Below are positions 34,001 through 35,629 of a DNA stretch of 64,000 bases, piece after piece; within the stretch, counting starts at the first letter, position 1, and every line of letters starts with the position of its first letter. The translations under genes and the position numbers were made by a program. The stretch lies in the NCBI RefSeq assembly GCF_002854065.1, contig NZ_CP024147.1. The stretch is one strand, 5' to 3'. This DNA comes from Escherichia coli (GTDB taxonomy: Bacteria > Pseudomonadota > Gammaproteobacteria > Enterobacterales > Enterobacteriaceae). Under the pieces are notes generated by a model, which did not search any database, had not been told where the DNA came from, and saw only the letters and a list, made by a program, of their open reading frames with translations.

Positions 34001-35629
34001 TAACAAATAGCGGCTCGGTTTATCGGCGGCGGGGAGATTTAACGTCACATGACCGCTGGCGTCGGACACCGTTTCACTGCCTTCCAGCGACACGGGGAAA
34101 CGTCCGGCATAACGCAAATCGTTACCGACCATTGATAATTGCTGAGCGCGCAAACTTAACTGCACGCGGGCATTTTTTACCGGCTCGCCATCCGGGTAGA
34201 GAAGTTGCAGTTTGCCGCTGACCGCTTCGCCAGTTTTGAACTCTTTTTTGTCGAGAGCTAAACCAATCTCGAAATGTGGCTTGATATAGTTGGCTACGCG
34301 AAAACTACTGCTATAGACCTGATTGCGGTAAGCAAGACGTAACTCATAACCTCCGGCAACGGCATTTTCTGGCAGGCGGAAACTTCCCTGCCCGCCATTG
34401 CGCGCATCCAGCGTGACATCGACGGTTTGCAACAGACTGCCGTTAGCGTCCAGCACCGAAAGCTTCGCCGGGGCGCTGACGATGGGGGATGAATGCAACG
34501 GATCGTGGAACTCGCGGCCCATCACTTTAACATCGACACGATCGCCTGCGCGATATAGCGGGCGATCGGTAAAAATATACAAGCGGGTGTTGTAGATTTC
34601 GCTTTCGTAGAAGAAGTTCTCGGAGACAAAAACGCCGCCTTCAGCATCCTTACCCAGAATGTATGAACGTTCTGGCGATATATGTTGTAACTGCAAGGTA
34701 CCGCTGTCATCGGTCACACCGCGGGTCATCACGCCAAGACCGTCAGTCCACAAGATCTCTGAGCCGGGCTTCGCTTCACCCTGTTTTTTACCCGCGGTCC
34801 ACACCAGAAGCTCTTTGCCTGACACTTTGCTAAGCGCCACGGTATCGGAAACAAACACCACCGTCGTCGCCCGATACCCACCAACCATCGCCTCGACGAG
34901 GTACAGTCCCGGCTCTTGTTGGCCGAGAGGAATATAAATGTTACCCGGCTGCGGCGAGATGAAATTGCTGGATGCGCCTTCCAGTTTTACCCCTTGCTGC
35001 GGCTCGACCGGTTTAGCCTGCCATAATGGGTAACGGAACTGTTCCACCAGGGGATATTTTTTCAGCGGGGAAAACTGGTTGTTCTGTACATAACGGGAAG
35101 GTTTAATAATGGCATTGCCGAGATGTAATTCGGGTAATGCCTGAGTCACATTCTGCCGTGACTGAGAAGAGAAAGTACGCTGCATCACGCGGCGAGATTT
35201 GCCGTACCAGTTATCCCACAGCCAGGTCAGCGTATTGTTCAGCCCGTCGCCCAGATATTGCGGTTGCACCACAATGCGATGCAGGTTTTTCTGCTGGCGC
35301 AAAAATGCCATCGGGTCAGGAATACGATACAGGCGAACGTCCACGCCGCCGTACTCTTCCATCTGATAGCGCCGATAATCACGCCCCGGCGCTTCCAGTC
35401 GCACTTTCGCCTCTTCACTGCTGCTAAAACTGCTGTCAGCAAGCAAAAAGAATGTTCCCCCTGCGGGCGGCGCATAGTTACTGGAAGGAAGCGAATCATC
35501 AGCATTAGCAAGCCCTGTTCCCACAAGAGACAGGGACAAGCACGCTGCTATCGCGCCAGAAAATTTAAACGATAAATGCCAATGAAATTGGGATTGGAAT
35601 CGTTGGGTATCCATCGGGTGTCCTTCCAT
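31010..35629 (-). CDS. yfaS: Alpha-2-macroglobulin family protein YfaS (1539 aa, intact, no CxEQ thioester motif found)
   Basis: Very large secreted ORF with N-terminal signal peptide (cleavage candidate after ANA). I scanned the translation and found no C-x-E-Q thioester motif. True start may be the Met 5 codons downstream (35614). Confidence 0.85.

Follow-up and report, generated by a model that had tools for sequence, protein, structure and literature searches.

A probable translation start for yfaS inside the upstream gene yfaT in Escherichia coli

Where does translation of yfaS, the gene for a bacterial alpha-2-macroglobulin, begin in Escherichia coli? The question arises in a 64,000-nucleotide (nt) stretch of contig NZ_CP024147.1, here called the window, whose minus strand carries gyrA, yfaA, yfaT, yfaS, yfaQ and yfaP in that order. 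All features given below are on this strand. The longest open reading frame (ORF) for yfaS (31010..35629, 1539 amino acids) lies in the -1 frame relative to yfaT, is open from 35629 and begins within that gene. A sequence-only reading of the window had reported that this ORF and its next Met codon both begin about 65-80 nt before the yfaT stop codon, in a different frame. We measured an overlap of 82 nt from the first ATG (35627..35629) and of 67 nt, or 22 codons plus 1 nt, from the second (35614..35612, product of 1534 amino acids), the yfaT stop codon TAG being at 35548..35550.

The sequence-only reading allowed either a genuine overlap of about 25 codons or a non-canonical start further downstream that would forfeit the signal peptide. 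Comparative evidence favors the former, with the overlap beginning at the second Met codon and covering 22 codons. The latter exists in public annotation, as the start GTG 35524 used by RefSeq. Most likely, the overlap is genuine and ribosomes initiate yfaS at ATG 35614, which lies 67 nt inside yfaT. As that reading also stated, the choice of start decides whether YfaS is exported: a product from GTG 35524 has no hydrophobic core, while one from ATG 35614 has a predicted signal peptide. The start site determines whether the type II alpha-2-macroglobulin of E. coli has any export signal at all. Taken at face value, the 1504-residue RefSeq models lead to a prediction of cytoplasmic location, and expression constructs designed from them would fail to export the protein.

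The overlap and the candidate start

The preferred start codon (35612..35614) takes its A from the third base of YfaT Arg186 (CGA) and its TG from Trp187, and this Arg-Trp pair is part of a conserved YfaT/MagC motif, D-T-R-W. Six nt upstream is a Shine-Dalgarno (SD)-like sequence, GGAAGGA (35621..35627, core AAGGA at 35625..35621), formed by the YfaT codons Trp-Lys-Asp (TGG AAG GAC). The search for SD motifs that the sequence-only reading had proposed yielded this site, and inspection of the sequence upstream of ATG 35629, ATA 35551 and GTG 35524 gave none. From ATG 35614, the coding sequence extends over 31010..35614 (1534 amino acids and a stop codon), as judged from the ORF list, Pfam matches and the ratio of nonsynonymous to synonymous substitution rates (dN/dS). 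The 67 nt at 35548..35614 would be dual coding, since they hold the last 22 codons and the stop codon of yfaT as well as the first 22 codons of yfaS in the -1 frame.

The overlap is coding in both frames. On the yfaT side, the gene is a member of the MagC/DUF1175 (NlpC/P60-like) family with a full-length profile match (PF06672, 1e-57, reaching profile position 225 of 226), and it matches the solved MagC chain 7BK8_A at 1.8e-103 with residues 21-206 covered. The YfaT C-terminus lies inside both the Pfam domain and the solved chain. On the other side, the yfaS frame is open and encodes the N-region and core of a signal peptide, both in E. coli and in 25 lineages that lack an alternative start.

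YfaS is a type II (MagD-like) bacterial alpha-2-macroglobulin. Its Pfam domains above cut-off are PF01835 (MG2), PF07703 (bait region, A2M_BRD), PF00207 (A2M) and PF17973 (bMG10), and its 1534 residues contain no CxEQ thioester motif and only two Cys residues, at 25 and 1189. The operon is of the mag type, with DUF2138, DUF1175/MagC, DUF2300 and YfaP genes present. Starting from ATG 35614, hydropathy and the alignment of homologues predict a signal peptide of 38 residues for the general secretory (Sec) pathway (35501..35614). Its hydrophobic core spans residues ~18-31 and starts four to five codons ahead of the yfaT stop codon, and cleavage is predicted after residue 38, at ANA|DD, just before DDSLPSS. 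The only positive charges in the signal peptide, Arg5 and Lys17, are both encoded in the overlap.

Every homologue that we retrieved has a hydrophobic signal peptide directly before a conserved mature N-terminus, (D/E)DS.PSS.Y....FFLLADSSF. In E. coli, YfaS would have the predicted Sec signal peptide only with a start at 35614 or further upstream, and a periplasmic location for YfaS is suggested by analogy with MagD. For P. aeruginosa MagD, a cleavable signal peptide is predicted and export to the periplasm was shown by experiment (PMC3735191). Our search with the first 260 YfaS residues returned only short fragments, which are useful for N-termini and not for statistics on full-length annotation.

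Two other types of export signal were considered and rejected. A signal for twin-arginine translocation (Tat) would fit the sequence DTRR found in relatives, but 25-35 non-hydrophobic residues follow it and E. coli has QR. The sequence IAAC, which includes Cys25, could pass for a lipobox, but it follows a hydrophobic stretch of just 7 residues, and the Cys is not conserved within the genus, being Tyr in locus L005.

The sequence-only reading had suggested aligning YfaS N-termini to see where conservation begins, but this check is unusable as proposed. In the yfaS frame, the overlap encodes a peptide (MEGHPMDT...QFHW) that is similar from Escherichia to Pseudomonas. However, the peptide is what the -1 frame yields from the DNA of the strongly conserved YfaT/MagC C-terminus, and because its similarity is largely a by-product of that conservation, it is not evidence of translation. 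For example, we discarded the sequence QPQFHW, which is common to P0045 and E. coli, as proof of translation, since it is imposed by the conserved YfaT sequence NPNFIG in the other frame. Two other signals are informative: the third bases of yfaT codons, on which YfaT itself places no constraint, and the place where the signal-peptide core falls.

To use the first of these signals, we compared 32 non-redundant junctions from Escherichia, Superficieibacter, Serratia, Yersinia, Aeromonas, Pseudomonas and others. Several codons that are rare elsewhere in yfaT are nearly or completely fixed in the stretch concerned. Arg186, which supplies the A of the embedded ATG, is CGA in 32/32 junctions, as compared to 1% of Arg codons in the rest of the gene. 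Likewise, Ile188 is ATA in 28/32 (4% elsewhere), Thr181 is ACA in 24/25 (7%) and Gln178 is CAA in 32/32 (22%), while Pro189 is CCC in 32/32 and Lys183 is AAG in 30/30. The ratio of observed to expected synonymous entropy drops to 0.34-0.42 only at codons 177-195 (35587..35643), where the rare codons CAA, ACA, CGA, ATA and CCC are fixed, and is 0.63-0.97 along the rest of the gene.

We also resampled the synonymous codons of the last 27 YfaT residues with the codon usage of the locus itself. In E. coli, the chance of an ATG at the site is 0.04, that of a -1 frame open to the stop codon is 0.16 and that of an SD-like motif is 0.13; the joint chance of all three is ~0.001. The embedded-start arrangement exceeds chance. 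Judging by these codon patterns, synonymous sites of yfaT are under selection that maintains the yfaS start codon and its SD sequence.

Variation within Escherichia is also lowest at the overlap. Across species of the genus, the 66-nt overlap differs at 0-2 positions, while differences amount to 5.5-15.4% in mature yfaS and to 15-38% over the remaining signal-peptide sequence. The gene has no indels across the genus, with a dN/dS of 0.05-0.07, and it remains intact along 4263 nt in four further species of Escherichia at dS values up to 0.84. Among E. coli genomes, 5390/5426 have the yfaA-yfaT-yfaS locus, and a 93-nt block at the overlap is identical in 4953/5380, versus 299/5377 for the next 93 nt, a contrast that is partly due to the allele of the window. 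Over the sequence queried, the window is 100% identical to E. coli strain 100416. One of the 5574 places matching the yfaA-yfaT-yfaS junction is on a plasmid record and not on a chromosome.

Start codons in other lineages

An ATG at the position of 35614 is present in 80/80 genome loci. To sample lineages in which the site might vary, we scanned metagenomes with the pattern W.DTRW..P...NPNF, which is neutral to the third base of the Arg codon, and obtained 92 distinct junctions. The Arg codon decides the codon in the yfaS frame: CGA or AGA gives ATG (40 junctions), CGG or AGG gives GTG (21), CGT gives TTG (6) and CGC gives CTG (25). We compared starts only at junctions where a mature macroglobulin follows in the -1 frame.

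Embedded and downstream starts are complementary without exception in the metagenomic junctions. There are 25 junctions with no other canonical start before the hydrophobic core, and in 25/25 the embedded site is ATG, GTG or TTG and the frame is open. In 21 of these 25, the core begins at residue 11-16, inside magC. Loci L084 and L085 have the same arrangement. Conversely, where the embedded site is unusable, that is, CTG or followed by an in-frame stop codon, the macroglobulin gene has its own downstream ATG in 12/12 junctions (Fisher p = 0.002). Upstream of the embedded codon, an SD-like motif is found in 56/61 junctions where this codon is ATG or GTG and in 9/31 of the others (p = 9e-10). 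The compared sequences are phylogenetically related, so both p-values are overstated.

Some lineages have Trp-Arg-Asp in MagC. In these, an embedded ATG or GTG goes together with the rare Arg codons AGG or AGA (giving GGAGGGA or GGAGAGA), and otherwise the codon is CGC (L097, L104, L120 and L176 compared with L112, L125, L126 and L139). Two metagenomic contigs, L083 and L084, have the macroglobulin gene split into two ORFs. The assemblies of three further loci (L089-L091), with Pseudomonas- or E. coli-like sequence, are full of errors and contributed no information.

A second in-frame ATG occurs in 64/80 genome loci. It overlaps the magC stop codon as ATGA, and the signal peptide that comes after it is sufficient by itself. 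In these loci, the rare CGA, or CAA, is the final magC codon before the stop, and the ATGA start, too, appears from this codon choice to be under selection. The sequence-only reading had taken a clear alternative start downstream as evidence against a real overlap. Such a start does exist in many other species, in the form of this ATGA, but not in Escherichia. There, yfaT ends in CGA TAG or CAA TAG, which leaves ATA (35549..35551 in the window) where relatives have ATG, and only 53 nt separate the yfaT stop codon from the mature YfaS N-terminus. ATA 35551 is probably the remnant of a second start lost in Escherichia, and with that start lost, the embedded start alone remains.

Escherichia is not alone in this respect. 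The ATGA is also lost, with no alternative start before the core, in Superficieibacter, Entomohabitans, P. schmalbachii, P. jinjuensis, L055/L063 and L067. The distribution of start codons indicates that the embedded start is ancient and is the sole start of many lineages.

Most Pseudomonas and Serratia have this ATGA besides the embedded ATG. Their loci (L013-L082) have two in-frame ATGs 63 nt apart, at locus positions ~3516 and ~3579. Both are held by rare A-ending codons, the first as CGA-TGG and the second as CGA/CAA-TGA, and the second has no SD sequence. These pairs suggest dual routes of initiation or two precursor isoforms. A broader idea, which we consider doubtful, is that the magC-magD junction is an ancient dual-coding module. 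In such a module, the Arg-Trp and Trp-Lys-Asp codons of MagC would double as the start codon and SD sequence of the macroglobulin gene, and the C-terminal strands of MagC would double as the N-region of the macroglobulin signal peptide. Both starts might then be under selection in Pseudomonas and its relatives, giving two isoforms or two initiation routes (de novo and by re-initiation). Either outcome might govern the MagC:MagD ratio or when export takes place, and a masking stem would be the switch.

The best-studied relative is magC-magD of P. aeruginosa (PA4490-PA4489, in magABCDEF), which belongs to the same operon family, with DUF2138/MagB, DUF1175/MagC, MagD, DUF2300/MagE and YfaP/MagF. 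MagD, a protein with no CxEQ thioester, carries a cleavable signal peptide and is found in the periplasm in association with the inner membrane (PMC3735191, PMC5764988). Its signal peptide was given as 21-26 residues in these papers, which do not mention the embedded start or its conservation. From related Pseudomonas loci, a signal peptide of 26 residues would fit a start at the ATGA that overlaps the magC stop codon. By contrast, E. coli has ATA at this position and must start 63 nt further upstream.

A predicted stem-loop and possible coupling

Folding predicts a stem-loop (35559..35627) that includes the initiation region, and RNAalifold and single-sequence folds gave the same structure. 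In it, the SD sequence (35627..35623) pairs with 35563..35559, the start-codon region CGAUGGAU (35616..35609) pairs with AUUUAUCG (35577..35570), and 35606..35603 pairs with 35582..35579 in a 4-bp helix that closes the loop. The consensus in relatives has GGAAG of the SD sequence opposite YUUYC and CGAUGGAU opposite AUYUAUCG. In 34 sequences, 96.9% of cells are paired, as compared to 36-50% in slid controls. Seven cells are changed on both sides of the stem, versus 2.1 in shuffles, and there is one compensatory pair at the start codon itself (in L085, which has GTG opposite C). A real stem would also account for the TAT codon of Tyr200 in 31/32 sequences, because the third base of this codon would pair with the A of the ATG.

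We propose the following mechanism. The conserved Trp-Lys-Asp of YfaT/MagC would supply the SD sequence of yfaS, and the Arg-Trp its ATG. The first 22 yfaS codons would encode the positively charged N-region of the 38-residue Sec signal peptide and the first part of its hydrophobic core, and removal of this peptide at ANA|DD would release a periplasmic, MagD-type alpha-2-macroglobulin. The initiation region may pair with sequence 35-60 nt downstream, and ribosomes completing yfaT may melt this stem, so that yfaS translation would be coupled to that of yfaT. As far as sequence comparison can tell, the embedded start, the SD sequence and the need for a signal peptide are the directly supported steps. 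The overlap is probably translationally coupled. That ribosomes achieve this by unmasking a structured initiation region is plausible, but we hold this part of the model with somewhat less than even confidence.

Several observations weigh against the start at ATG 35614 or against its coupling to yfaT. The predicted stem is no more stable in E. coli than shuffled sequences (z = +0.37, versus -3.8 in the P. nitroreducens-like locus L016), and most of its columns are invariant. Moreover, pairing of the start codon is predicted equally often in lineages without an embedded start, so we rejected the stem-loop as a means of discriminating lineages that have one. The N-region of the YfaS signal peptide, at 21 residues, is unusually long for Sec. 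In Pseudomonas, a MagD1-64-mCherry fusion indicated that the annotated short signal peptide suffices for export (PMC3735191). This genus can therefore do without the N-terminal extension, and the embedded start is only a candidate in Pseudomonas. We found no ribosome-profiling, N-terminomic or reporter data on the yfaS start in the papers and supplements searched, and the supplements of INRI-seq and TRAINSPOTTER do not mention yfaS.

A further difficulty is specific to the window, where yfaT (35548..36166) is disrupted. Relative to K-12, there is a 5-nt deletion (TGTGT, in the repeat CTGTGTTGTGTTG) between 36133 and 36132, in the signal-peptide region. The native frame stops after 16 codons (36116..36166), and RefSeq flags the gene as frameshifted. 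An ATG at 36111, 5 nt past the early stop codon, reopens the YfaT frame without its signal peptide, as a 187-residue ORF that runs to the overlap. Given the frameshift, coupling in the window would depend on re-initiation at this ATG.

Neither a promoter and terminator scan nor an Rfam search produced anything relevant at the yfaT-yfaS junction; the latter gave only a chance-level match (E = 0.87).

Alternative starts and known systems

The alternative that survives best, though we judge it unlikely, is a start at the first ATG, 35629. This codon opens the longest ORF and would give an 82-nt overlap and a precursor five residues longer with the same mature protein, so that little separates it from the preferred start. 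It is present in 75/80 genome loci, and the nearly invariant ACA of Thr181 could be read in its favor. However, the GGAAGGA falls downstream of this codon, which has no SD sequence upstream. The codon is also missing in L026, L061, L068, L069, L076, L084 and L085, which keep the 67-nt site, and in many metagenomic lineages that rely on the embedded start. Moreover, the 1539-residue form was absent from the protein collection, in which the sampled yfaS cluster has 40,950 members.

The ATA at 35551 has a certain appeal, since it occupies the exact position of the ATG in 64/80 relatives and termination-reinitiation at overlapping stop and start codons is an established mechanism of coupling. Re-initiation after the yfaT TAG would give a signal peptide of 17 residues and low expression. 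We nevertheless regard this as quite improbable. AUA is a very poor initiator in E. coli, the site has no SD sequence and the resulting peptide lacks a charged N-region. Furthermore, such a start leaves unexplained the upkeep of the upstream ATG, SD sequence and open frame in Escherichia, as well as the lineages whose hydrophobic core is upstream of the stop codon.

The RefSeq/PGAP model starts yfaS at GTG 35524 (35522..35524), 24 nt past the yfaT stop codon, giving 1504 amino acids, no overlap and no signal peptide. It is the start in every E. coli record that we inspected, and entries of 1504 residues dominate the protein cluster, although entries of 1534 residues, corresponding to ATG 35614, are also present. 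Another point in its favor is that it needs no long overlap, a feature that often turns out to be a gene-calling error. Nonetheless, it is very improbable that this model is right. The GTG is preceded by pyrimidine-rich sequence that contains no SD motif. The codon is residue 31 counted from ATG 35614, so a start there leaves only MGTGLANA ahead of the mature protein and no hydrophobic core, whereas all homologues have a signal peptide and MagD is periplasmic. Despite strong purifying selection on the gene, E. albertii (L006) and Escherichia sp. MOD1-EC7003 (L004) have GCG in place of the GTG, and the 23 nt between the yfaT stop codon and the GTG vary by substitution only and still encode hydrophobic residues. 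Given the probable embedded start at ATG 35614, GTG 35524 would be a misannotated start site.

Gene callers that penalize long overlaps will systematically mis-start the yfaS/magD family. N-termini called in this family are also inconsistent: P0043 has a TTG start that leaves a "signal peptide" of 8 residues, and P0009 starts inside the hydrophobic core. The candidate starts in E. coli can be separated by single silent changes, for example CGA to CGC, which removes the embedded ATG and leaves YfaT unchanged.

That the operon is decaying in E. coli, with the start lost as ATGA became ATAG and yfaS no longer productively translated, is hardly credible: yfaS is annotated as a pseudogene with an internal stop codon in the K-12 derivative JW5503 (L002) and in Ecol_881 (L088), yfaT being intact in both, and yfaT is frameshifted in the window, but these inactivating lesions differ between strains and are therefore recent, and the low dN/dS, the intact gene in four other Escherichia species and the near-universal presence of the locus in E. 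coli all oppose decay. We also rejected a programmed -1 frameshift that would produce a YfaT-YfaS fusion. A slippery heptamer, A_AAT_TTT (35566..35560), is in phase with yfaT, and a -1 shift there leads into the yfaS frame. However, this site occurs only in Escherichia and in Superficieibacter (L007), while the corresponding sequence is A_AAC_TTT in L008 and G_AAT_TTC or the like in Pseudomonas and Serratia; the heptamer is probably a coincidence.

Long same-strand overlaps and embedded initiation regions are established phenomena, of which yfaT-yfaS is a well-supported further case. Embedded, structure-masked initiation regions with translational coupling are known from rpmI-rplT in the IF3 operon and from the coat and replicase genes of MS2. 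As in these systems, the SD sequence and start codon of yfaS would lie within the upstream ORF and be sequestered by a predicted stem, which translating ribosomes would open, and the operon is compact. In contrast to them, the stem at yfaT-yfaS is modest, the coupling is only predicted and the overlap would also encode part of a signal peptide.

Overlaps of more than 60 nt are usually annotation errors, and a conserved one is uncommon. The 67-nt overlap far exceeds the 1- or 4-nt class of short stop/start overlaps, such as ATGA and TAATG, although the same operon has an ATGA at yfaA/yfaT and most relatives have one at magC/magD. It would be a clean case of a conserved overlap longer than 60 nt in which amino-acid conservation in one gene, yfaT, supplies the ribosome-binding site and start codon of the next.

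Among macroglobulins, E. coli YfhM (ECAM) and Salmonella A2M, which are of type I, are periplasmic protease-trapping proteins with multiple MG domains, as YfaS would be. YfaS lacks CxEQ, and its Cys25 is not conserved. By contrast, proteins of type I have a CxEQ thioester and, being lipoproteins, a lipobox Cys; they are encoded next to pbpC (PMC3735191).

The long N-region of YfaS is reminiscent of the extended signal peptide regions of autotransporters, in which a long, conserved N-terminal extension precedes a normal Sec signal peptide. This is an analogy only: there is no sequence similarity, and the conservation of the YfaS extension is largely imposed by the YfaT frame.

Elsewhere in the operon, too, the genes are closely spaced. 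In an ATGA (36163..36166), yfaA stops and yfaT starts, the yfaS TAA is directly before the yfaQ GTG (31007..31012), and the gap between yfaQ and yfaP is 4 nt in the RefSeq record.

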